A program made the translations under genes and the position numbers. This document shows positions 23,985-43,760 of a stretch of 46,302 bases of DNA, one piece after another. The DNA is from a virus. How positions within the stretch are numbered: position 1 is the stretch's first letter; each line of letters opens with the position of its first letter. The stretch lies in the IMG/VR virus record IMGVR_UViG_3300005056_000005, positions 1 to 46,302 of that record, one strand, 5' to 3'. The notes beneath the pieces were generated by a model that made no database searches, was not told the DNA's origin, and saw only the letters and a program-made list of their open reading frames with translations.

Positions 23985-24301
23985 GTTGTCCGCCTATTCG
24001 TAGCTCTGATTTGTAAATCTTGATCGGTCAATACATTACCCCCGCCATCTTTCGCAACGATGTTAACGCGATAATTAACGCCCTCAGTTAATCCCAGCGT
24101 TGCGGATGTGACGCCACGGTAAATACTAGTAACCGAATCGAAAGGCATGGCTAACGGCCACGTTTCGCCAGTTACTTCCACGTCATCAGGATCAAAAATA
24201 GTACCCGTGACGGTAGCGTCAATGATCAGATCAGTACTACCACATGCGGTTAAATCTGAAAGCTCCAAACATGATGGGTTATCTATAAAAAGCGCTGTCA
24301 T
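23981..24301 (-). CDS. hypothetical beta-rich protein (106 aa), accessory insert
   Basis: An ORF with ATGA-type overlaps on both sides. Confidence 0.7.
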   Translation of the reverse strand: MTALFIDNPSCLELSDLTACGSTDLIIDATVTGTIFDPDDVEVTGETWPLAMPFDSVTSIYRGVTSATLGLTEGVNYRVNIVAKDGGGNVLTDQDLQIRATNRRTT

Positions 24302-25503
24302 AATATGTCAACCATGGCAGTATAAGCGGGGATTATATTCGATTGTCCCCCATAAGCTGGGAAAATGTCAATTTCAGCAGTAGCCGCGATTAATGCGGCG
24401 CCTGTTGATATCGCCGCCGCTGTACTGTCGCCAGCCTCAGCCACGTTTGCCGTGATGCTAACAATGTTATTCAGCGTGGCGCTTGTGGTGTCGCCCGCCT
24501 CGTTGACATTGGCAGTTATTTGAGATAGGCCGCCAACTGTGAGACTGGCCGCCGTGGTATCGCCAGCCTCGGCTACGTTAGCGCTAATGCTAACAATGTT
24601 ATTTAGAGTAGCTGTTGTTGTATCGCCTGCTTCGGCTTGATTGGCGGTAATGCTAACGATGGTGGCCAGTGCCGCGGTTGTGGCGTCTCCTGCTTCGGCC
24701 ACGTTAGCGTTAATACTAACAATGTTATTCAGTGCGGCGGTTGTGGCGTCTCCTGCTTCTGCTACGCTTGCGGAAACACTAACAGTAACCTCGAGGGCAG
24801 CGGATGTAGTATCACCAGCCTCATCAACGTCCGCGGTAATTGTGCTTCCGCTAGCCGCGGCTTCCTGCACTAATACAGTGGTAGGAATGCCTCGTCTCGT
24901 AGCTGATAACGTAAAAGCGCCGGGATCTTCGCTGGACACAGACGTTATCGCCCTAGTACAAAATGCTAGGGAGCATTGAGAGCCAGAGACGCCAGACCTA
25001 GTAACACCAGTGTTAATATAACTTGATGGGTAGCTATTAACGTCTGAATTGTGAGTGTCAAACGGCAATACAGCAAACGATAAAATATCCGCCGCGCCGC
25101 CGGTTACATTAACGCTCGGTGGGTCATGAGTAACAGTGTTGCCACCGTTAGTGACTGTTCCTACATCGGGGGCCTGTGTAGCAAAACTTAGGTGTCCCGA
25201 TATTCTGTACGCGCGAGCCGTGAATTCCCCGGAGACTGTAGCAGTTACCGTGATAGACGACGGCTCAGACGCTCCCGCCTGTTTATAGGCCGCTGCGCCG
25301 CTGGAAAAACCGTCGTCGTCGTTTAAATCGTATAACTCGGTATAGCCGTCTGACCATGAGACCGTGCCAGTCCCACCATTATCTCTCGATAGAAAAATAA
25401 GGACGCCCTCACCCTCAAGGGGTGAACCCGTTAAAATCGTGAATGACGTGGTAGCGTTGTCGTCATTGCTGGGAGTTTCAGCAACTATCGTGGGGGATGC
25501 CAT
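24298..25503 (-). CDS. 401-aa protein: N-terminal beta domain plus seven ~20-aa EAGD tandem repeats
   Basis: The repeats have the form I(T/S)ANVAEAGD(T/A)T(T/S)A(A/T)LNNIVS. It lies between terL and the portal gene. Confidence 0.8.
   Translation of the reverse strand: MASPTIVAETPSNDDNATTSFTILTGSPLEGEGVLIFLSRDNGGTGTVSWSDGYTELYDLNDDDGFSSGAAAYKQAGASEPSSITVTATVSGEFTARAYRISGHLSFATQAPDVGTVTNGGNTVTHDPPSVNVTGGAADILSFAVLPFDTHNSDVNSYPSSYINTGVTRSGVSGSQCSLAFCTRAITSVSSEDPGAFTLSATRRGIPTTVLVQEAAASGSTITADVDEAGDTTSAALEVTVSVSASVAEAGDATTAALNNIVSINANVAEAGDATTAALATIVSITANQAEAGDTTTATLNNIVSISANVAEAGDTTAASLTVGGLSQITANVNEAGDTTSATLNNIVSITANVAEAGDSTAAAISTGAALIAATAEIDIFPAYGGQSNIIPAYTAMVDIL
24406..24840. repeat. seven diverged ~60-bp tandem repeats (coding, EAGD repeats)
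   Basis: The recurring gctaacaatgttattyag...gtrtcgccwgcytc units are visible in the sequence. Confidence 0.8.
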
Positions 25504-34281: not shown

Positions 34282-34508
34282 ATATCGATATAAAAGAATT
34301 TTTAGAAGAGCACGCTGGCAAAACGATGTGTTTTTCATACTATTACAAACACACATTTACCTATATTTTCCAGGAATCTGAAGACTTATATATTATAACA
34401 TGCGGAGTTATAAACGGCGGTCTTTGCCGCGAAAGATGGGCAATTGAGGAGGAGATTAGACCCATCTTAATTAACTCAATATCAACAATAACTATTAAAA
34501 ATAAATGA
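34278..34508 (+). CDS. early hypothetical protein (76 aa, GTG start overlapping the upstream stop)
   Basis: GTGA overlap. It is the last ORF before the terminator. Confidence 0.6.
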   Translation: MNIDIKEFLEEHAGKTMCFSYYYKHTFTYIFQESEDLYIITCGVINGGLCRERWAIEEEIRPILINSISTITIKNK

Positions 34509-34521
34509 GAGAGGTAAATAA

Positions 34522-34863
34522 TCAAATAGCGGCTACTAAATGCCGCTTTTTTTTCGAATTAGAAAAACCCTGAATTAACGGGTGATTTTCTGAAATGGCT
34601 TGAGCTATAACGCTGTGCTGATCGTGTTTAACAGCATACTGAATAAGATGGTTTTTAAATTCATCCATGCCGCCCATTATTCTGCTAACATTTCCAGTGG
34701 ATGTTTTGCCAAGCTCGGCCAATTCGCTTCTCTTAATAGTGTTGTAATGCCGCTCTTTTGTTAACTCGCAAGCTAAGCCGAGTATTTCACGGCGTCTAAC
34801 TGTTAATTTTTTATATTCGATAGTCATTTGTTTATTGTGACAGTGTTGTCTGTATTTGTCCAC
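34522..34863 (-). CDS. HTH DNA-binding protein (transcription regulator), last gene of the leftward operon
   Basis: HTH-like RSELAELGKTSTGNVSRIMGG. The alternative start is MTIEYKKL. Confidence 0.65.
   Translation of the reverse strand: MDKYRQHCHNKQMTIEYKKLTVRRREILGLACELTKERHYNTIKRSELAELGKTSTGNVSRIMGGMDEFKNHLIQYAVKHDQHSVIAQAISENHPLIQGFSNSKKKRHLVAAI
34528..34555 (+). terminator. rho-independent terminator (AGCGGC-tactaaat-GCCGCT-T8), possibly bidirectional between convergent operons
   Basis: A 6-bp GC-rich stem followed by TTTTTTTT. It overlaps the 3' end of the convergent minus-strand gene. Confidence 0.75.
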
Positions 34864-34890
34864 TAGTCAGTGTTGATGATTAATCGATCC

Positions 34891-35091
34891 TTATTCGCTA
34901 CACCCCTCAGCCCAAATAACAAGCTTCCCGGGTGCGATCTCCTCAAAACAAGAATTGCCAACAGTCCAATAACAATCATCCCATTGAAAAACAACCTGAA
35001 AATCGTCGGGGTACTCCTCTAGTTTTTTTTTCATTTCCGAAACCGTCATTGTTGGCTTTTTCCCTCTCTCGTTAATCTCTGTAGTGATCAT
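34891..35091 (-). CDS. hypothetical protein (66 aa)
   Basis: ATGA overlap with the upstream gene. Confidence 0.65.
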   Translation of the reverse strand: MITTEINERGKKPTMTVSEMKKKLEEYPDDFQVVFQWDDCYWTVGNSCFEEIAPGKLVIWAEGCSE

Positions 35092-35741
35092 TGTGATCGG
35101 GCGCTCCTGGCGTCGTATTGTTCAATGCCCCACGCAATGGCGTAGAGACACCAAATATAATGGAAGGTGTGCTTCTCACAGCCACCGCTGTCAAAAAAGT
35201 CATCGAACTGAAGGCCGTCGTGTTCGAAATTATAAACAGCGGCGTATGCGGCATGCTCACCGTTATCGATTTCAGACAGTACGTGGGTGTCAATCTCTTC
35301 CTTCAGGTGGTCAGGCCATTCAGCGTCGCCTTCACCCGCGCTTTCTATCCACGCGTCAAAATACTGCCCCACTCGCGCCCTGAAAGCCTCCTCGTCAAAT
35401 TCTTTGTAGCCGCCCGGCTGCGAAATGCTCAGTAATTTTTCACCCCAATACCCGGAATTGATAAAAAGCGTTAGTTCGGGGTGCGATTCTTTGTACCTTT
35501 GTTCCGTCCTGAAAAATTCGAACATGTCTGTGATACGATTAAACACATATGTTCCGCAGTCGCCGGTCACGCAAAGGTGCTCTGGCCAAGTGATTAATTC
35601 GAAGTGGTAACAACCAGTGCCTGGCCGCTTGAATTGAATGTGCCTGTTTACCCCATCGTCTCGTTCAACGTGCATTTCGTGTTCTTTAACGTCTTTTAAA
35701 AATCGTTCTTCAGTACAGTAATCCATGCTTTTAATCCTCAT
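35088..35741 (-). CDS. conserved hypothetical protein (217 aa; alternative start at 35726 with SD AGGA)
   Basis: A long ORF. The block HVERDDGVNRHIQFKRPGTGCYHFELITWPEHLCVTGDCGTYVF resembles a widespread prophage/plasmid ORFan family (recollection only). Confidence 0.75.
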   Translation of the reverse strand: MRIKSMDYCTEERFLKDVKEHEMHVERDDGVNRHIQFKRPGTGCYHFELITWPEHLCVTGDCGTYVFNRITDMFEFFRTEQRYKESHPELTLFINSGYWGEKLLSISQPGGYKEFDEEAFRARVGQYFDAWIESAGEGDAEWPDHLKEEIDTHVLSEIDNGEHAAYAAVYNFEHDGLQFDDFFDSGGCEKHTFHYIWCLYAIAWGIEQYDARSARSQ

Positions 35742-35753
35742 AGTAAAATTTTT

Positions 35754-35915
35754 TCACCCATCGATTCTGTTAGATTCTTCGTGCTCCATGCAAAGTAAAT
35801 GAGCCTTAATTGCAATGTCTTTGTTTTTAATATCATTGGTCATAACAATAGCTTCATCGTAACGGCCCTCTAAGCATAGCCTTTTTATTTCGGGGATTAG
35901 CTCTATTTGCTCCAT
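35754..35915 (-). CDS. small hypothetical protein (53 aa)
   Basis: My own translation gives MEQIELIPEIKRLCLEGRYDEAIVMTNDIKNKDIAIKAHLLCMEHEESNRIDG. It fills the gap and overlaps the upstream stop by 13 nt. Confidence 0.45.
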   Translation of the reverse strand: MEQIELIPEIKRLCLEGRYDEAIVMTNDIKNKDIAIKAHLLCMEHEESNRIDG

Positions 35916-36091
35916 TGTTCGCGCTCCAATTCGATATCACCTACGCCATTTTTAGGCTGCTTAACTTTTGGCATCGGGGGAATGTGTTTTAGTTTTACTG
36001 CCGGTCTCTCTTGCCCACACCTCACGCATGCGGTAGGCATGTCAAAAAGCAATTTATTTTTGTGGCCGAAAATCTTACACATTAAGTTCAT
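35903..36091 (-). CDS. DUF1660-like small zinc-ribbon protein
   Basis: MNLMCKIFGHKNK...CVRCGQ resembles the prophage DUF1660 pattern CKxFGHK...CxRCG. Confidence 0.5.
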   Translation of the reverse strand: MNLMCKIFGHKNKLLFDMPTACVRCGQERPAVKLKHIPPMPKVKQPKNGVGDIELEREQWSK

Positions 36092-36094
36092 TTG

Positions 36095-36304
36095 TTATTC
36101 CCACGCATTATTAGACCCGCTACCAGACACAAACCTGGACCCAGACCTGGACCCAGACCCAGGCCTGGACCGAGACCAAGACCCAGACCTGGACCAAGAC
36201 CTAGACCCAGAACTAGACCTAGACCAAGACCCAGAACTAGACCTTTGCCTAGTTCTAGAACCAGAACTAGAACCGGACCTTTTTAATTTATTCCTACGCA
36301 TCAT
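36095..36304 (-). CDS. Ser/Gly/Arg/Trp hexamer-repeat protein, paralog 2 (69 aa)
   Basis: MMRRNKLKRS followed by (S-G/R/W)n. SD GGGAG lies 8 nt upstream. It overlaps paralog 1 by 11 nt. Confidence 0.6.
   Translation of the reverse strand: MMRRNKLKRSGSSSGSRTRQRSSSGSWSRSSSGSRSWSRSGSWSRSRPGSGSRSGSRFVSGSGSNNAWE
36113..36280. repeat. hexanucleotide array, about 28 units of (A/G)GACCN on the plus strand
   Basis: Visible as ggacccagacctggacccagacccaggcctggaccgagaccaagaccc... Confidence 0.85.
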
Positions 36305-36515
36305 CTTTACCGCTCCCAGACCTGGACCCAGACCCAGACCTGGACCCAGACCCAGACCTGGACCGAGACCAAGACCCAGACCTGGACCCAGACCCAGACC
36401 TGGACCAAGACCTAGACCCAGATCTGGACCAAGACCTAGACCCAGATCTGGACCAAGACCAAGACCCAGAACTAGACCTAGACCAAGACCGTGCCAATTT
36501 GCTACGTTTCATCAC
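36294..36515 (-). CDS. Ser/Gly/Arg/Trp hexamer-repeat protein, paralog 1 (73 aa)
   Basis: (V)MKRSKLARS followed by SWSRSSSGSWSWSRSGSRSWSRSGSRSWSRSGSGSRSGSWSRSRSGSGSRSGSGSRSGSGKDDA. There is a strong SD AAAGGGGG 7-10 nt upstream. Confidence 0.65.
   Translation of the reverse strand: MMKRSKLARSWSRSSSGSWSWSRSGSRSWSRSGSRSWSRSGSGSRSGSWSRSRSGSGSRSGSGSRSGSGKDDA
36316..36490. repeat. hexanucleotide array, about 29 units of (A/G)GACCN on the plus strand
   Basis: Visible as ccagacctggacccagacccagacctggaccc... It is the second block of the same repeat. Confidence 0.85.
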
Positions 36516-36539
36516 AGCTGGACCCCCTTTAGTCTTCGT

Positions 36540-36884
36540 TTACTTGAAAATACCGTGGCTTTCAATTGATTGCATTGCCACGCTCCATTTTCCGGGCATC
36601 TGCTCCGCATCGGACCAATCAACTGTTTTGTGGTCACCGGTGTTATACACAATCATTGCGTTTTCAAAAACAATAGAATCACCTACAATCGCTACACAAT
36701 CACCCGTATAAATATAGTTCATCGCGTAAATAGTTGGGCGTTCGCCAATATATTGACGATATTCGAGATGCGCCTTGTGATCTTCAGGAATCTGATACGC
36801 CATATTTTGAATTTCTTTTATTTGACCTAATGTTAGTTCGTTAATATCCATTTTTTTGACCTTACCTGTTAAGTGTCCTTTCAT
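36540..36884 (-). CDS. hypothetical protein (114 aa; alternative start MDINELTL at 36851)
   Basis: An ORF in the operon. Confidence 0.7.
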   Translation of the reverse strand: MKGHLTGKVKKMDINELTLGQIKEIQNMAYQIPEDHKAHLEYRQYIGERPTIYAMNYIYTGDCVAIVGDSIVFENAMIVYNTGDHKTVDWSDAEQMPGKWSVAMQSIESHGIFK

Positions 36885-36906
36885 TATGACGCCGCCGTCA
36901 CACTTG

Positions 36907-37206
36907 TCAATTATTATTTAGTAGCCCTTTGGTTTTACTTAAAAGATATTCCTCTTTGCCGTGCCTTTCCCCGAATTGATATTTGCCATCGCCATGGCGC
37001 GATTTATAACCCGGCCCGGATACTTGATGATGCCTACCGCATAGGCCGATTGTTTTTAGGTGCGCCCCTGGTTTTGTTTTTCCGTCGATATGATGTGGGC
37101 AACACTCGGTCCAGGTATCAAGCTCCAACAAGCACACGATACAGCCTAGATCGCATATTGCGCCCATCCATTCCTTTTCTTCCGCTGTGGGCGCCCTGCC
37201 CTTCAC
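36907..37206 (-). CDS. Ref-like HNH nuclease (RecA-dependent nuclease family-like)
   Basis: LGCIVCLLEL...CCPHHIDGKTKPGAHLKTIGLCGRHHQ...H...FGERHGKEEYLL matches GCxVC...HH...LCxxHH...F..G. Confidence 0.6.
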   Translation of the reverse strand: MKGRAPTAEEKEWMGAICDLGCIVCLLELDTWTECCPHHIDGKTKPGAHLKTIGLCGRHHQVSGPGYKSRHGDGKYQFGERHGKEEYLLSKTKGLLNNN

Positions 37207-37415
37207 ATTATCGCCTGAATAATTTGATCAATATCCCAAACAATTTGATAGTGGCCATCCCATTCCGCCTTGAGTTTTTTTTGACTGGGCTTTATTTCGC
37301 TAGGCCTTACCTCTCCAGTTACAGGGCTTACAGTAGACGGCTCTTTAATTTCAAACCAAAAAGTATTTCCTTTATAGCCCACTAAAATATCATCATGCCC
37401 AGGCTCTACTGACAC
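37203..37415 (-). CDS. VRR-NUC-like PD-(D/E)xK nuclease. The track ORF starts at GTG, but the homology-like region extends upstream to about 37496
   Basis: GHDDILVGYKGNTFWFEIKEP is a D...ExK motif. The upstream in-frame RVDANQSDIIDALRAIPG also matches the family N-terminus but has no ATG/GTG/TTG. Confidence 0.6.
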   Translation of the reverse strand: MSVEPGHDDILVGYKGNTFWFEIKEPSTVSPVTGEVRPSEIKPSQKKLKAEWDGHYQIVWDIDQIIQAIM

Positions 37416-37508
37416 GCCAGGAATCGCCCTGAGCGCATCAATAATGTCTGATTGGTTTGCGTCTACTCTTGCAGCCCTTCGGTATTTACTGATAATTAAT
37501 ATCTCTAG

Positions 37509-37769
37509 TTATATTTCTTTTAATAGATCAGTTGCTTCTGTATAAAGTTGGCTTTTGCATGGATCACCGGAATAATTAGCGCTTATTCCGCACTTTATTA
37601 AATCCAGCTTTTTTATTAACATTCCTTCAAGCCTCGCTACATTTTCTAGCGCTTTTTCCCCGACTTGAATGCGTGTAGCTGCCCATTCAGGCTCGCGCTT
37701 AACGGCTTGGAAAATAGTGCAATCATTGCCTTCGCTGTCATGATATATCTTTGCGGTGTTCATTTTCAT
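37509..37769 (-). CDS. hypothetical protein (86 aa)
   Basis: An ORF whose start abuts the upstream stop. Confidence 0.7.
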   Translation of the reverse strand: MKMNTAKIYHDSEGNDCTIFQAVKREPEWAATRIQVGEKALENVARLEGMLIKKLDLIKCGISANYSGDPCKSQLYTEATDLLKEI

Positions 37770-38087
37770 TTACCTATATTTTTTAGCTTCGTTATTTAAA
37801 TAAGTGTTAGCATCTTTTCTCGCCGAAGACTTTTTACTTAAAAATAGTTTTGTATAATGGTTTGAAACCTCCTGTTTTTTATCTTTCGGAATTACTGCTA
37901 TTCTAGACAGTATCCAATCACGATCACTCACACCCAATTTGCAGTAATAAAACTTGGGGTATGGGTCCATATTTATCAGTTCTTGCGGATAAGGTCCCTC
38001 AATCCTCAATAACCTTGCTCCTCTGCTATTTTGAAATACTCTGAATCTCTCGGATTTATCAAAATGATGCCTTTTTCTATCGCCCAT
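37770..38087 (-). CDS. hypothetical basic protein (105 aa; alternative start at 37970)
   Basis: An ORF. Its first 82 nt overlap the NinB-like gene, so the start is uncertain. Confidence 0.6.
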   Translation of the reverse strand: MGDRKRHHFDKSERFRVFQNSRGARLLRIEGPYPQELINMDPYPKFYYCKLGVSDRDWILSRIAVIPKDKKQEVSNHYTKLFLSKKSSARKDANTYLNNEAKKYR

Positions 38088-38479
38088 GCCTCATGACGCC
38101 GAAGAGCGTCGAATCTTTCACCTTTGGACGCTGCACGCATCCCGTCGCGGCCTTTTCTGCTCCAACTTAACCTTACCCCTTGGTTATCCGTTCCAAGCCA
38201 GTGTGAAGCAAATAAGGCGTGTGCGTCATCGCTGTTAAATTCTCGCTTTCCGTAGTTGTTTCCGGCCACGTCGATCATCAGCGGCATTGTCGCCCCGTTT
38301 TTTGCCATAAAATCGGCTGTGGTGCTCATCCAGGACCGCCAAAGTCTTGCCATGCCCCATTTTCCAGTGTTGCTAGCATCGCTCGAATTGATGATTAGAT
38401 TCGGCGATTCTTTCAGCTCGTCCTGTAGCGAATTAATTAACGCTGGTAAATTATCAATACTCAAATGAAAATCTTTCAC
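38006..38479 (-). CDS. NinB/Orf-like recombination mediator (tentative)
   Basis: The size (157 aa), the position after the P-like gene, and the blocks KWGMARLWRSWMSTTADF and GERFDALRRHEAWAIEKGI resemble lambda NinB as I recall it. Confidence 0.4.
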   Translation of the reverse strand: MKDFHLSIDNLPALINSLQDELKESPNLIINSSDASNTGKWGMARLWRSWMSTTADFMAKNGATMPLMIDVAGNNYGKREFNSDDAHALFASHWLGTDNQGVRLSWSRKGRDGMRAASKGERFDALRRHEAWAIEKGIILINPRDSEYFKIAEEQGY

Positions 38480-39120
38480 GTTTTGCCGCCTATCAATTTT
38501 GTATCGATTTTCGCTAGGGCCTGACTTAGCGGAGTTGATAGCCGGGGCTTGTCACCGCCACCCTGGAACACCGCTAGCGCTTTCTTGTGGTCACCCAGTA
38601 GGATTGGTTCTGGAATTTTAGCGTTGACGTGCTGATGATTGTGGGCCTCAGTGATGCCGATTAATTTTTTCGGCCAGCGCTCAAGTTTTGAGTTTAAAAA
38701 ACCCTTGTACCGGGTCACAAACTCATTCCGAATAAACGGCAATTCCTTTTCGGTCACTTCACAGATTGTTATCCAGCCACCCATCCCCTCGATCACGGCC
38801 ATTATTTGCGGCTCATCAAAAACAACCGTTTGATAGGATCCCGTACTAGATATCTCGGCCACGACTTTAGACCACGCCTGCAAAGCTCTGCTAGCTGTAT
38901 CGCCGTCGATGTAGCGAATCACATCAGCCGGTTTTGGCGCAAACTGTCCGCCGTCAGGGTTTCTCATGTGCGCATCTAGCGCTCTGCGAACATCATCGAG
39001 CTCGTAACTCATTAGAGATCTAAACACCATTCCAATAGCGGCGGAGCTTGGCACTTTGCCCACGACCTCGCATGTTGCCGCCCAGACTGCGCTGAATTGC
39101 TGGAAATCATTTTTATTCAT
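38476..39120 (-). CDS. lambda P-like replication protein (helicase loader)
   Basis: GGQFAPKPADVIRYI (compare lambda P PFLPSPGQFVAWC) and the C-terminal IPEP...LSQALAKI (compare IPEP...AQALAKI). It lies immediately after the initiator-like gene and has no Walker A. Confidence 0.5.
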   Translation of the reverse strand: MNKNDFQQFSAVWAATCEVVGKVPSSAAIGMVFRSLMSYELDDVRRALDAHMRNPDGGQFAPKPADVIRYIDGDTASRALQAWSKVVAEISSTGSYQTVVFDEPQIMAVIEGMGGWITICEVTEKELPFIRNEFVTRYKGFLNSKLERWPKKLIGITEAHNHQHVNAKIPEPILLGDHKKALAVFQGGGDKPRLSTPLSQALAKIDTKLIGGKT

Positions 39121-39123
39121 AAT

Positions 39124-40029
39124 TTAATCCGGTAGGTCGTCTAAAAATCCTGAGTCAATAACGTCCTGGGCTGCCCGCATTGATCGTTGCTGAAACTGGG
39201 CAATGGTTTCCGGTTGTCTGGGATCCGCTGGGGTTATTTTTGCTATGTTGTCCGCGAAATTTTCCATTTTCGTGCTCTCTCGGCAAATTAGCTCAATATC
39301 GTCATACACCGTTCCCTGGTCATTTTGGCCCATATGATGCGGCGATTTAGCGCAACCATCGATAGCCGATTTAATATAATCAACCGTGTAGCCATCTTTG
39401 AGTCTGTCAATGATTTTAGATTTTCGTTTTTTAGTGAGTTTTGTTTGATCGGTTTTGCCCATTCTGTAAACCCAATGATTAAATATTTCCTGAACATCAT
39501 CAGAAACCGGTATGTCGGGCTTGCTCGACAATGCTTTTGTATCTTTATCTTTATCTTTATCTTTATCTTTATCTTTATCTTTATCTTTATCTTTATCTTT
39601 ATGGTTAGAGTCTCGTTCCTTTTCCGTTGCAACACTAGCTAAACGTTCGCCCAACGTCTGTTTAACGTTCGTTGGTTTTTCGTTGGATTCCTGTTCTTTT
39701 TTACGCTTTCTGGCCGCTGCTGACGCTTTTCCACCTTTTGAAGAACTAATAGATTTGCTTAAAACGAACTCAAGATCACGGTCAATTCGGTCATGTTGCC
39801 AGTGTGTTTCAGTCACATTGAAAAATTCACTCAACACTTCCTCAACGTCCGTCCAACGTTCGTTGGACAAGCGTGCAACGCCAGCTAAACGCTTCTTAGG
39901 AATCGGTTTGCCTGTTTGCCAATAATTCATCATAAGCAGAAGATATGCCCCGTTTTCCTCCGTCGTTAAATGGAACGTATCAGCGATGTAATCGGCCACA
40001 TATAGCTGCATATAAGGTAAAGCTGCCAT
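39124..40029 (-). CDS. replication initiator-like protein: DUF1376 (YdaU) N-domain, (KD)10 linker, conserved phage C-terminal domain
   Basis: LPYMQLYVADYIADTFHLTTEENGAYLLLMMNYWQTGKPIP matches DUF1376. The C-terminal FNHWVYRMGK...KRKSKIIDRLKDGYTVDYIKSAIDGCAKSPHHMGQND resembles Phg_2220_C. Confidence 0.8.
   Translation of the reverse strand: MAALPYMQLYVADYIADTFHLTTEENGAYLLLMMNYWQTGKPIPKKRLAGVARLSNERWTDVEEVLSEFFNVTETHWQHDRIDRDLEFVLSKSISSSKGGKASAAARKRKKEQESNEKPTNVKQTLGERLASVATEKERDSNHKDKDKDKDKDKDKDKDKDKDTKALSSKPDIPVSDDVQEIFNHWVYRMGKTDQTKLTKKRKSKIIDRLKDGYTVDYIKSAIDGCAKSPHHMGQNDQGTVYDDIELICRESTKMENFADNIAKITPADPRQPETIAQFQQRSMRAAQDVIDSGFLDDLPD
39541..39600. repeat. perfect hexanucleotide microsatellite (ATCTTT)x10, encoding (KD)10 on the minus strand
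   Basis: Counted directly: 60 nt, 83% A+T. Confidence 0.95.
39631..39686. repeat. cluster I of 11-bp-phased AACGT(T/C) / CGTTGG motifs (candidate iterons)
   Basis: AACGT starts at 39642, 39653 and 39664, with a degenerate AACAC at 39631. CGTTGG occurs at 39670 and 39681. Confidence 0.5.
39844..39893. repeat. cluster II of 11-bp-phased AACG(T/C) motifs, including the palindrome CCAACGttCGTTGG (39853..39866)
   Basis: AACG starts at 39844, 39855, 39877 and 39888. Confidence 0.5.
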
Positions 40030-40043
40030 GATTTCCCCTTTAG

Positions 40044-40247
40044 CTATTCAGCTTCCTTTATCCACCTGTCAAGCGCTTCTTTTTCGTATCGCACTGGTGA
40101 TGTTTTGCTCTTGCCTAGCTTTGAGTACTTTGGTGCGTCTCTACCTGCAAGAACTCCAGTAGACCTGCCTATTCTTAGTGTCCCTGGAGAGTAACCCAGG
40201 TAAATTGCAGCCTGCTTTGCCGTCAAAAACGCTCTTTCTTCACTCAT
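40044..40247 (-). CDS. small HTH DNA-binding protein (AlpA/excisionase-type fold), first gene of the leftward operon (Cro-like position)
   Basis: FLTAKQAAIYLGYSPGTLRIGR...VRYEKEALDRWI matches the HTH_17/AlpA pattern. Confidence 0.7.
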   Translation of the reverse strand: MSEERAFLTAKQAAIYLGYSPGTLRIGRSTGVLAGRDAPKYSKLGKSKTSPVRYEKEALDRWIKEAE

Positions 40248-40278
40248 TATGTTGACTCTTTATTGATTTTGAGATTAG

Positions 40279-40307
40279 ACAATAATACACGAGTTAGTAT
40301 AAGTCAA
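40279..40307 (-). promoter_or_regulatory. candidate leftward promoter TTGACT-17-TATTGT
   Basis: On the minus strand the -35 is 40307..40302 and the -10 is 40284..40279. The -35 lies inside the inverted repeat AGTATAA-N8-TTATACT (40296..40317). Confidence 0.4.
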
Positions 40308-40333
40308 CTATTATACTTTCTTGTAAATATATG

Positions 40334-40362
40334 TTGACAGTCATGTTAACTATTGCTAAATT
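40334..40362 (+). promoter_or_regulatory. candidate rightward promoter TTGACA-17-TAAATT
   Basis: It has a consensus -35 and a 17-nt spacer. It lies inside the track ORF start, so the CDS more likely begins at 40394. Confidence 0.5.
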
Positions 40363-40393
40363 AGATCCATCGAATCAATTAACGAGAAGACAA

Positions 40394-40780
40394 ATGAAAT
40401 ACATAGACCTTTACGACATACACGACGCAGCGTTTGCCAATCGAGCAGAATGTAGCTCGTGTGAGTGGCATAGAGGCGAGGGATTAGACGCAGTGTGTCT
40501 CAAGCTAGACGATATGGAGCATCATGATTGCCCATTTGTTAGCGCTGTTCTTAGTGACGCAGAGGCTATAATTGGGTGCGAAAATAAAGACATGATTATT
40601 GAGTTTGCAGACAAAATTATGGAATTAGAGCTGGATAAGCGCGAAAAAGAATCGATATCAGTGGGCGCGTTTAGTCTTTTCGTATCCCAAAATCAGGAAA
40701 TTCTAAAACCTAAAATCACTGATTTTTTTACCAGTCGGCTACGTGATGATAATAATTATAGGAGCGTTATCTATGTGTGA
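40394..40780 (+). CDS. hypothetical protein (128 aa from MKYIDLYDIH)
   Basis: The first ATG downstream of the candidate promoter. The track start at 40331 overlaps the -35 element. Confidence 0.65.
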   Translation: MKYIDLYDIHDAAFANRAECSSCEWHRGEGLDAVCLKLDDMEHHDCPFVSAVLSDAEAIIGCENKDMIIEFADKIMELELDKREKESISVGAFSLFVSQNQEILKPKITDFFTSRLRDDNNYRSVIYV

Positions 40781-40947: not shown

Positions 40948-41565
40948 ATGGACGAGCGATTTTTAAATCTGGAAGGGTTGAGGAAGCCATTCCCAGAAGA
41001 ATTTGTAGGGAAGCTGCCTAAACCTACCAAAAAGCAAACCGATGAAGTTAGGGCGGATTTCAAAAAAGGCGTGCGTTGTGTAATTTGCGGCGGATGGCAT
41101 CACCCTAACGTTATCCACCTTGATTACGTCGGCCATGCTGCATTAACTGCTAGATTGCTAGATATTGATCCAGAGTGGAACTGGGAGCCGTTGGGAACTA
41201 ATGACATAGGATTACCTGTACTTGATAAAGACGGGCTGCTATGGATTAAATTGACAGTGTGCGGATTAACCCGAATTGGTTGTGGTGATGCTGGAAACAA
41301 GACTGGTGGTGATGCAATGAAAGAGCGCATCGGTGACGCTCTAAGAAACGCTGGCATGAGGTTTGGGCTAGCCTTGGACCTATGGCATAAGGAGGGAGGG
41401 TTGCCGGTAGGTGAGTCATTTGAAGAGCCTGCGGTTATTTCTGATGAAAATATTAAAAGGATTAAAGAAGGTAGCAAAAATGGTGCAAGCATCTCACAAA
41501 TAGCACATAGATTAAAACTAACTGAAAAAGAAGTTAAAACCGTATTGGAGAATAAAGATGGGTAA
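40948..41565 (+). CDS. putative ssDNA-annealing recombinase (Rad52/DUF1071-like)
   Basis: [38 protein letters not shown]...[26 protein letters not shown]. It lies directly upstream of ssb. The family is recalled, not searched. Confidence 0.5.
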
Positions 41566-42055
41566 AGGCGTTAACAAAGTAATAATTGTCGGGAATTTGG
41601 GTCAAGATCCAGAGGTTAAATATATGCCCAGCGGCGACTGTATAGCTAATATATCAATAGCTACCAGCGAATCTTGGAAAGACAAGCAGACAGGTCAACA
41701 GCAAGAGCGTACCGAGTGGCATCAGGCATGTTTTTTTGGAAGACTTGCTGAAATAGCTAGGGATTATTTAAAAAAAGGCGCTAAGGTTTACATAGAAGGG
41801 TCTCTAAGAACAAGAAAATGGAAAGATAAGCAGACAGGTCAGGACAGATATAGTACTGATATTGTGGTTAAGGAAATGCAAATGTTAGACAGTAGAGGCG
41901 ACAACCCGCAGCCCGGACAGCAGCCCGGACAGCAGCCTAGCCAACCGCAACAACAGAGCCAGCAGCAGAGCCAGCAGCAGCCGCAACAGAATCAAGGGTA
42001 TCAGCCTGCTGGTCCTGATGTTGGGGATGCTTTTGATGACGATATCCCATTCTAA
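41558..42055 (+). CDS. ssb: single-stranded DNA-binding protein
   Basis: The OB-fold N-terminus [21 protein letters not shown]...TEWH, the Gln/Pro-rich linker and the acidic tail DDDIPF are all present. Confidence 0.95.
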
Positions 42056-42809: not shown

Positions 42810-43760
42810 ATGAGTGAAGACAAATCTAGTCTTGAGATAGTACTAGAACAAACTAGCGCTTTAGTGGTGTTTAAAAAAGATGGAGTAGAGAATCTTGTTA
42901 GTAAGATCGAGGACGAAGTCAGAAGTGTTGTGCATGATGTTACAACAAAAAACGGCAGGAAGGAAATGGCTTCTCTTGCCTATAAAGTTAGCTGTTCTAA
43001 GACTGCATTAGACGCCCTTGGAAAAGATTTAGTGGCTGAATGGAAAGCAAAGTCTAAGGCGGTAGACTCGGATCGAAAGAAAATAAGAGATAGACTTGAC
43101 GCCTTGAGGGATGAAGTTAGAAATCCATTAACTGAATGGGAAGCGGTGGAAAAAGCCAAAGTTGAAAAAGAAAAATTAGAGACTGAAAAAGCCAAAGCGC
43201 AAGAATTCGCAATAGATGAAAACGATTTATTTGATAGGCAAAAGGCGATCGAATTAAAAGAAGAAGAGCAGCGGCAAGCAGAGTTAAAGCGCATTGAGGA
43301 AGAGGGGGTGGCCAAGGCTGAAAAAGAACAGCGCGAACGAGAAGAGAGATTATTGAGCAAGGCGGCAGAGGAGGCTAAAGAGGAAGCTCAGCGTAAGGCA
43401 CAGCAGGCAAAGGTTGACGCAGAAGAGCGACTGAATGAAGAGCGTGAAGCTAAGCAAAAAGCTCAGTGGAAGGCGGAACAGGAAAAGGTTTTGGCGGAAG
43501 AGCGCAGAATTAAAGACCTTGAAGAACAAGAAGAACGACTAAAAAAAGAGCACAAAGCCAAGGAAGCGGAACGCCTAAAAAAAGAGGCTGACGAACGAGA
43601 AAAGGCAGAAATAAAAGCAGCCGATAAAAAAAATCAAAGAATTATTAACAACGAAATATTAGCTTCCCTTCAATCTATTGGGATAAGCGAGGAACATTCT
43701 AGATTGATAATCACTAAAGTGGCCAGAAATGAAATTCCAAAGTTGAAAATAATTTACTGA
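42810..43760 (+). CDS. Glu/Lys-rich coiled-coil protein (316 aa), DUF1351-like?
   Basis: A long EKAKxE-type helical region. The N-terminal block LAYKVSCSKTALDALGKDLVAEWKAKSKAVDSDRKKIRDRLDALRDEV resembles DUF1351 proteins found near phage recombinases. Confidence 0.7.
   Translation: MSEDKSSLEIVLEQTSALVVFKKDGVENLVSKIEDEVRSVVHDVTTKNGRKEMASLAYKVSCSKTALDALGKDLVAEWKAKSKAVDSDRKKIRDRLDALRDEVRNPLTEWEAVEKAKVEKEKLETEKAKAQEFAIDENDLFDRQKAIELKEEEQRQAELKRIEEEGVAKAEKEQREREERLLSKAAEEAKEEAQRKAQQAKVDAEERLNEEREAKQKAQWKAEQEKVLAEERRIKDLEEQEERLKKEHKAKEAERLKKEADEREKAEIKAADKKNQRIINNEILASLQSIGISEEHSRLIITKVARNEIPKLKIIY

Follow-up and report, generated by a model that had tools for sequence, protein, structure and literature searches.

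Serine-repeat genes of an environmental phage and their linkage to an upstream gene for a predicted Sm-fold protein

General features of the locus

The subject of this analysis is a group of three adjacent minus-strand genes in a viral DNA of 46,302 nucleotides (nt; IMG/VR record IMGVR_UViG_3300005056_000005, positions 1 to 46,302), the whole of which is referred to as the window. Two of these genes, SR1 and SR2, encode small proteins with arrays of Ser alternating with Gly, Arg or Trp; both follow X, the gene of a small acidic protein with a predicted Sm/LSm fold (Table 1). Together they very probably represent real genes of an X-SR cassette, which was found to be widespread and in which the linkage between the two gene types is near-obligate in both directions.

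Table 1 Features of the X-SR1-SR2 locus (positions of the window)
Feature	Position	Strand	Remarks
X	36540..36884	minus	small acidic predicted Sm/LSm-fold protein; longest open reading frame 114 amino acids (aa); directly upstream of SR1
SR1	36294..36515	minus	73 aa from GTG, 72 aa from ATG at 36512
SR2	36095..36304	minus	69-aa paralogue of SR1; start ATGATG
Shine-Dalgarno-like AAAGGGGG	36523..36530	minus	ahead of SR1
Shine-Dalgarno-like GGGAG	36313..36317	minus	SR2's own
X-SR1 spacer, 24 nt	36516..36539	minus	holds Shine-Dalgarno-like AAAGGGGG
Period-6 DNA array TCY-NGG across SR1 and SR2	36133..36490	minus	Tandem Repeats Finder: 59.5 copies, 66% matches
SR1-stop/SR2-start junction GATGATGCGTAGGAATAA	36288..36305	minus	one copy of duplicated unit boundary
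Decayed second junction copy AATAATGCGTGGGAATAA	36095..36112	minus	end of SR2; ATGATG lost, TAG changed to TGG
Sigma-70-like promoter candidate TTGACA-16-CATAAT, 11/12	36883..36910	minus	directly after stop of Ref-like nuclease gene, upstream of X

An earlier sequence-only reading of the window had reported SR1 and SR2 as two minus-strand open reading frames (ORFs) overlapping by 11 nt, each provided with its own Shine-Dalgarno sequence and each composed of a short basic leader and a Ser/Gly/Arg/Trp array with the codon pattern TCY-NGG. All of these elements are present. SR1 consists of the leader MMKRSKLAR, 29 Ser-[Gly/Arg/Trp] dipeptides and the tail GKDDA. Its start reads GTG-ATG, the ATG being an equally possible initiation codon, and relatives have ATGATG at the same position. 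In SR2 the leader MMRRNKLKR precedes a Ser-x array (x, residue alternating with Ser) which is more degenerate than that of SR1, and the next gene's ATG (36091) follows 3 nt after the stop codon. The two proteins share a net charge of +14 at compositions of S 32, R 13, G 12, W 6 and K 3 (SR1) and S 27, R 13, G 10 and W 4 (SR2). Codon usage in SR1 agrees with the previous description for Ser (TCT 22, TCC 7, AGY 3), Gly (GGG in 11 of 12) and Arg (AGG 8, CGG 2, AGA 2, CGT 1). The previous estimate of about 28 hexamers per gene holds for SR1 with its 26 strict in-frame TCYNGG units, but not for the more decayed SR2, which retains 15 such units and 20 S[GRW] dipeptides. Three consecutive TCYNGG units were matched 27 times in the window, exclusively on the minus strand of the SR1/SR2 region, and not once in 100 dinucleotide-preserving shuffles. 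An AlphaFold2 model of SR1, calculated without alignment, is mostly coil and of low confidence (predicted local distance difference test, pLDDT, 59.6; predicted template modelling score, pTM, 0.21); the near-absence of predicted secondary structure is weakly consistent with disorder.

Coding nature of the repeat genes

By its very composition, (TCYNGG)n lacks stops in four of six frames, and an open frame alone is therefore no evidence of coding. A degenerate DNA pattern search of IMG/VR, with a pattern biased towards TCY codons, yielded at least 120 contigs. In 57 loci among the matches listed, the window included, the array lies inside an ORF of 33-127 aa that opens with a short leader. Because of the TCY bias, a second set of 42 SR genes was ascertained only through the neighbouring gene X. 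The alternating Ser codons in this second set are AGC (32%), TCT (28%), TCA (18%), TCG (17%) and AGT (4%), with essentially a single Ser codon being used per gene (38/38 AGC, 52/52 TCT, 36/36 TCG, 43/45 AGT). Since AGY and TCN codons are not joined by synonymous single steps, it is serine which is conserved and not a nucleotide motif. Only sense frame 1 specifies the same peptide in all lineages, all other frames changing their meaning from one lineage to the next. Within the window, the leaders of SR1 and SR2 differ by synonymous codons (CGT/AGG, TTG/TTA, CGG/AGG, TCT/TCC). In the closest relatives, overlaps join the SR stop to the start codon of the gene that follows (L123, L129) and the X stop to the SR start (L129, L173).

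Judged by these patterns of conservation, SR1 and SR2 are real genes translated in the Ser-x frame rather than a DNA-only repeat, and the encoded protein is under selection for Ser, for the leader and for the mixture at x. The minus-strand coding frame assigned previously is thereby upheld, Ser being kept through different codon families and no other frame being conserved. Frame-breaking indels, missing starts or signs of plus-strand expression, any of which the sequence-only reading had named as speaking against it, were found in none of the loci examined.

Two competing explanations bear directly on this point. In one, (NGG + 3 nt)n acts as RNA or DNA, e.g., as a platform for an X ring in the manner of the trp leader for TRAP or as a structured RNA, and the ORFs are incidental. 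It can draw on the stop-free frames, on the NGG form of ~92% of the x codons across lineages, and on the folding of the window array RNA, which is far better than that of shuffles (z = -7.1). It is nonetheless highly improbable, since no RNA or DNA motif explains the retention of Ser through AGC/AGT on the one hand and TCN on the other, the conserved leaders have start codons that are always in phase, the stops overlap neighbouring genes, and all length differences are multiples of 3. The favourable folding is moreover specific to TCT-codon lineages (median z -4.5) and is gone in those using AGC (+1.1) or TCG (-0.1) and in the single AGT gene (+2.1). A conserved RNA structure was accordingly rejected, the folding being a by-product of UCU pairing with GGG or AGG. 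Searches against Rfam gave no match at the gathering threshold; the microRNA-precursor matches obtained, far below it (36 bits versus a gathering score of 101.7), reflect the hairpin-prone nature of the repeat. In addition to its coding function, the GG periodicity may also be read by X, which would amount to a dual role. The other explanation holds that the plus strand is expressed, where a 220-aa ORF (35907..36569) open across both arrays encodes a Pro-Arg/Leu-Asp repeat resembling proline-rich antimicrobial peptides. The probability of this is close to nil: the ORF has TTG as its start codon, it lies antisense to three closely packed genes of the operon, and its openness is due solely to the fact that no stop can arise in (CCNRGA)n. 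The Pro-Arg frame, which had been considered as an alternative before, is not conserved and reads Pro-stop (TCA), Pro-Ala (AGC) or Pro-Thr (AGT) in other lineages.

Linkage of the repeat genes to gene X

The longest ORF of X begins upstream of its probable true start, the ATG at 36851 (MDINELTLGQ..., 103 aa), as judged from the alignment of homologues and from the position of the promoter candidate. When the ORFs located up to 4 kb from the repeat genes were clustered, X proved to be the only conserved neighbour across the 57 loci. In 37 of them it immediately precedes the repeat gene in the same orientation, at a median gap of 2 nt, and was detected by its hidden Markov model (HMM) in 43, 5 of the remaining 14 loci being cut by a contig end. 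In the opposite direction, a chain scan of all loci fetched revealed 1-8 SR genes directly downstream of X in 92 of the 96 evaluable X genes; up to 9 copies in one locus were recorded in a separate count. SR1 and SR2, which the sequence-only reading had viewed in isolation, are hence one half of a near-obligate pair.

That reading had also stated that no phage protein family of this kind was known. The genes are not unique but belong to a large, if undescribed, metagenomic family. A profile search with X retrieved 4842 clusters when grouped at 90% identity and 2167 when grouped at 50%, all of them unnamed. A phmmer-type search with SR1 scored none of 3107 candidates sharing words with it, presumably owing to the composition-bias filter. 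Matches in cellular genomes were limited to 5, all on contigs of metagenome-assembled genomes. Among 50,697 cultured-phage records X was present in 2, both of which are metagenome-assembled and carry a repeat gene downstream. X, SR1 and SR2 have no significant match in Pfam, PHROGs, NCBIfam or PADLOC, and X has none among PDB sequences at E up to 10. No literature on either gene or on the pair was found in open-access text. X-SR looks like one of the commoner unrecognised two-gene modules in environmental phages. Over the length of X, one contig (L001) shows 100% identity to the window. This and four further contigs carrying X (L125-L128) end inside the repeat array, where short-read assembly breaks, which helps to explain why the cassette has gone unnoticed. 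SR arrays break assemblies and are discarded by gene callers and HMM bias filters, resulting in systematic under-annotation.

The genes are packed for translational coupling, with ATGA overlaps in relatives and a 24-nt gap containing a Shine-Dalgarno-like sequence in the window. In the latter, X and SR1 share the reading frame and are separated by one TAA and 8 codons (TKTKGGPA; 36516..36542). Read-through of the stop would give an Sm-fold protein with an SR tail; the shared frame is, however, probably due to chance, and read-through is not a feature of the family, since at other loci the ATGA overlaps place the two genes in different frames.

Duplication and evolution of the hexamer arrays

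The SR1/SR2 pair arose by tandem duplication of a ~210-bp unit. The junction between the SR1 stop and the SR2 start is found a second time, though decayed, where SR2 ends. The tandem paralogy proposed earlier is borne out by this duplicated stop/start junction and by leaders differing largely through synonymous changes. The closest relatives possess a single SR gene, and more than one SR gene directly follows X in only 10 of the 92 cassettes. In six loci (L005, L029, L089, L095, L120, L146) the SR gene is amplified to 4-9 tandem copies, depending on the filter, and the copies within one locus have the same leader but different arrays. A second SR gene is located upstream of X in L133, L136, L139 and L146, and after a second copy of X in L133 and L136. 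In a further locus (L115) the C-terminal peptide of X, IESFCETNKS, forms the end of one SR gene, the same duplication process having copied it there. Copying of the stop/start junction by gene duplication was noted for L064 as well.

Within genes, heterozygosity at hexamer positions 1-6 amounts to 0.04, 0.05, 0.04, 0.62, 0.18 and 0.16, i.e., the Ser codon (positions 1-3) is nearly invariant, positions 5-6 are mostly GG, and position 4 is close to maximally mixed. Gly, Arg and Trp are exactly the amino acids reached by changing the first base of NGG, and the design of the SR sequence is unusual in that one position is fixed as Ser while the other toggles among these three. Between close relatives (X at least 85% identical) the SR length differs by -48, -30, -246, -72, -39, -87 and +3 nt; the differences thus span 3-246 nt, are all multiples of 3 and mostly of 6, in agreement with the earlier prediction of rapid in-frame changes in array length. 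The arrays evolve by in-frame gain and loss of hexamers with strong homogenisation, and the pattern fits rapid slippage or unequal exchange as the homogenising force, against which selection keeps the Gly/Arg/Trp mix at position 4. SR arrays accordingly provide a clean case of concerted evolution, combining within-gene homogenisation with protein-level selection for the mix at position 4. A diversity-generating retroelement, which relies on adenine-specific mutagenesis, was considered and rejected: the A of the AGC Ser codon never varies (38/38, 37/37 and similar) while position 4 does. No reverse transcriptase was detected among the conserved neighbours of SR loci.

Predicted fold of X and its subfamilies

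The AlphaFold2 model of X, based on a 77-sequence alignment, is confident (pLDDT 82.9) and comprises N-terminal helices followed by five strands. Among the top 50 PDB matches of this model in Foldseek, almost all are Sm/LSm proteins (probability 1.00, E 7e-4 to 5e-3), headed by SmG in 9dtr_g (E 6.7e-4, target TM-score 0.78) and including SmE, SmF, SmD3/B (1d3b), the LSm1-7 and LSm2-8 rings and archaeal SmAP. In a viral structure library, X matched a phage 'RNA binding protein' and DUF6948 proteins. The model agrees with the Sm fold, which is characterised by an N-terminal helix and a strongly bent five-stranded antiparallel sheet; Sm1/Sm2 motifs or a Pfam LSM match were not found in X.

X falls into two subfamilies, each accompanied by its own type of SR leader, with no exception in the members listed. 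Subfamily A, to which X of the window belongs, is associated with the basic leader 'M.[KR]..K.K.RS', and subfamily B with 'MN.A.LR.G[FY][DE].S'. The leader is conserved among paralogues as well as orthologues, but the array is not. By eye, an 'IGRGxxI' segment resembling Sm2 was noticed in subfamily B. Tandem X-X fusions of ~200-260 aa were observed in four family members (P0121, P0126, P0153, P0227); as an indirect hint, such tandems would fit an oligomer or a ring of fused dimers. Median net charges are -3 for X and +11 for SR.

Genome context

On the minus strand, the gene order of the operon is DUF1376 replication protein, NinB-like, Ref-like RecA-dependent nuclease, X, SR1, SR2 and a DUF1660 gene. 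The repeat genes had previously been placed downstream of recombination/nuclease genes; Ref-like and NinB-like genes are indeed upstream, but X is located directly in between. The earlier designation as early leftward operon likewise stands in part: the genes belong to a replication/recombination region, and an early expression may be assumed by analogy to lambdoid phages. X-SR1-SR2 may have a promoter of their own: the candidate ahead of X is the best-scoring site in the interval 34400..40400, although the total number of such sites there is not above that of shuffles.

The structural module of the phage encodes a contractile tail. Its large terminase is 68% identical to that of Vibrio phage 1.210.O (best match), the full genome of which shares no X or SR genes. 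Megablast of positions 35000-38000 against INPHARED phages gave no match, and no tRNA genes were detected in the window. The minus-strand ORF of the DUF1376 replication protein (39124..40029) harbours a perfect (TATCTT)x10.5 run (39540..39602) coding for a (Lys-Asp)10 tract in mid-protein. This second in-frame hexamer array of the same operon is either very young or hypermutable, since it is perfectly homogeneous (100% matches). Further tandem repeats were observed at 24569..24784 (63 nt x3.4, in ORF 24298..25503), 43384..43524 (75 nt x1.9, in ORF 42810..43760) and 41908..41989 (12-nt and 3-nt repeats, in ORF 41558..42055).

Proposed function and alternative explanations

Overall, the cassette is best explained, if tentatively, by the SR leader docking disordered Arg/Trp tails on an X oligomer, with the complex binding or condensing nucleic acid early in infection. 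X would form a ring or other oligomer, as Sm proteins do, the leader would attach the SR protein to it, and the resulting complex would display several flexible Arg/Trp tails which bind and compact nucleic acid, most likely RNA. The cassette would thereby be a split-gene analogue of eukaryotic Sm proteins with Arg-Gly (RG) tails, or of Hfq with its disordered C-terminus, and its action, early in infection, would concern gene expression, host takeover or the protection of phage nucleic acid. As to its parts, a physical interaction of X and SR is somewhat favoured, and a role in binding or condensing nucleic acids is conceivable at rather less than even chances. Compaction of bacterial nucleic acids by cationic peptides, and the formation of joint condensates, are known to be possible (PMC10630377), and LSm-like proteins linked to RNA stability have been reported from phage T4 (PMC12152347). 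An extended version, which is unlikely, takes X-SR as a self-contained phage ribonucleoprotein or condensate module: an Sm-like ring would recruit tails of stickers (Arg, Trp) and spacers (Ser, Gly) via the leader and phase-separate with RNA or DNA, so that nucleic acids of host or phage are reorganised, or protected from defence, at an early stage of infection. Hexamer slippage and gene amplification would then tune tail valency on short evolutionary timescales. If true, bacterial viruses would possess, in thousands of uncultured phages, a counterpart of the Sm/RG and SR-protein assemblies of eukaryotes.

Several points weigh against the docking of SR tails on an Sm-like X oligomer with a nucleic-acid target. 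X is Sm-like by its predicted structure only, at a query TM-score of ~0.5, and is not assigned here to the Sm family; neither LSM nor Hfq is among the Pfam matches of 37 X members at any E value up to 1. Small beta-barrels are also known in roles other than RNA binding, as in Tudor and SH3 domains and in the peptide-binding LSm domain of Edc3. The mild acidity of X fits binding of a polycation better than binding of RNA by X itself. Co-inheritance alone could account for the correspondence of leader types with X subfamilies, and no X-SR fusion proteins were found among the long family members inspected. Three loci (L038, L055, L098) have a different 112-aa ORF upstream in place of X which is missed by the X HMM and may be an alternative or very divergent partner; their SR leader reads MIKKSIYK.NIGS, and they adjoin DNA polymerase B-like and RecA-like genes (identified by eye). 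At the nucleotide level, Gly is encoded by GGG in 91% of cases across lineages. This bias is explained here by descent and by the need to keep Trp (TGG) one step away, and synonymous Gly variants (GGT, GGA) have spread in some lineages (L133, L167), as neutral drift predicts; a constraint on 'GG' every 6 nt may be an additional factor.

Other functions are compatible with parts of the evidence. SR could be a polycationic toxin or host-takeover effector that harms the host by membrane permeabilisation, in the manner of Arg/Trp antimicrobial peptides, or by collapse of nucleoid or ribosomes, with the acidic X oligomer serving as chaperone, carrier or antidote, as nucleoplasmin does for basic proteins. 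The opposite median charges (per monomer for X), the SR contents of ~11% Trp and 14.5% Arg, the translationally coupled production and the compaction of bacterial nucleic acids by cationic peptides (PMC10630377) would all suit such a pair. SR proteins, however, have no hydrophobic or amphipathic segment and no signal peptide, and 40% Ser together with 13% Gly dilute Arg and Trp far below the level of typical antimicrobial peptides. This possibility, which appears rather unlikely, overlaps the best explanation in the X-SR complex and its nucleic-acid target and differs from it mainly in the effector partner. An anti-defence decoy or inhibitor, the tails of which bind a host immune protein (like GW/WG 'Ago-hook' repeats on Argonaute) or coat phage nucleic acid against nucleases, would place array turnover and gene amplification in an arms race. 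The copy number of 1-9, the fast change of arrays between near-identical phages, the location among genes that are early (by analogy) and accessory, and the nearly always Ser-flanked Trp in a disordered context agree with it. Slippage of a perfect hexamer array, on the other hand, fully explains the fast change, neither a conserved defence-related neighbour nor a PADLOC match was found, and no prokaryotic Argonaute is known to have Trp-binding pockets, leaving this function improbable. There is even less reason to regard the array as a translational delay line or tRNA sensor, in which the run of Trp and NGG codons slows ribosomes and gates coupled downstream translation irrespective of the peptide. 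Stop/start overlaps do make the genes that follow dependent on translation of SR, NGG codons alone are used at x, and Trp is frequent; but conservation of the leader and strict Ser alternation via different codon families point to selection on the peptide, and a timer would hardly account for gene amplification to as many as 9 copies.

Comparison with known systems

Tail docking on X, the preferred explanation, finds its closest counterparts in the eukaryotic Sm proteins with C-terminal Arg-Gly tails (SmB, SmD1, SmD3, LSm4) and in bacterial Hfq, which share with X-SR a small Sm-fold subunit and a flexible, low-complexity Arg/Gly-rich extension. In X-SR, however, the tail is a separate gene in 1-9 copies and not a fusion, it consists of strict Ser-x dipeptides with abundant Trp, and X is acidic and without detectable Sm sequence motifs, such that the likeness lies in the predicted fold only. 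Phage proteins with a predicted LSm-like fold are also known from T4 (GoF, MotB.1, Frd.2), where early expression and a suspected RNA role are on record for them; they have no sequence relationship to X, and no repeat-protein partner is reported in the abstract of PMC12152347.

With respect to the tails, RS domains of SR splicing factors resemble SR1 and SR2 in their long alternation of Ser and basic residues, their disorder, their positive charge and their low complexity. Such domains consist mainly of Arg-Ser and are attached to an RNA recognition motif (RRM), whereas Arg accounts for 13 of 73 residues in SR1 and for a family median of 14.5%, and only about one third of the x positions of SR1/SR2 are Arg, the rest being Gly and Trp. 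Furthermore, SR1 and SR2 are free-standing proteins of ~70 aa with neither an RRM or Pfam domain nor a linked kinase, and belong to a phage and not to the eukaryotic nucleus. The Ser-Asp (SD) region of staphylococcal Clf/Sdr proteins and the serine-rich repeat glycoproteins are likewise Ser-x arrays arising from short DNA repeats with strain-variable length, and models of these proteins were the only, sub-threshold NCBIfam matches to SR1 (E ~0.08). Their x is Asp, Ala, Val or Thr, they are acidic or neutral, and they serve as spacers in very large, secreted, wall-anchored and glycosylated proteins without homology to SR.

GW/WG 'Ago-hook' repeats, found in GW182 and in viral silencing suppressors, are an anti-defence device in eukaryotic viruses. 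They resemble SR in having many Trp flanked by small residues (Gly/Ser) in a disordered chain, but strict Ser alternation and high Arg are not Ago-hook features. Precursors of ribosomally synthesised and post-translationally modified peptides combine a conserved leader and a variable core with modifying enzymes encoded alongside; SR genes have a layout of leader and variable core as well as multi-copy arrays, but their only conserved neighbour is the ~100-aa X, with no enzyme-like match. Arg/Trp-rich antimicrobial peptides and protamines are cationic like SR, the former also containing Trp, and such peptides can compact nucleic acids (PMC10630377). In contrast to antimicrobial peptides, SR is not amphipathic, has no secretion signal and is paired with X. 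Protamines contain more than 50% Arg and act in sperm or virion packaging; Arg is ~15% in SR (~18% in SR1, 14.5% as family median), Ser and Gly make up more than 50%, and the genes are located in the replication/recombination region and not in the structural module.

If X does present the tails to nucleic acid, phages would have arrived on their own at a split form of the Sm/RG-tail or SR-domain design, offering a tractable bacterial system for low-complexity assemblies driven by charge and aromatic residues. The X-SR cassette is rated here as a new kind of module, the components of which resemble the Sm fold, RS/RG tails and SD repeats.

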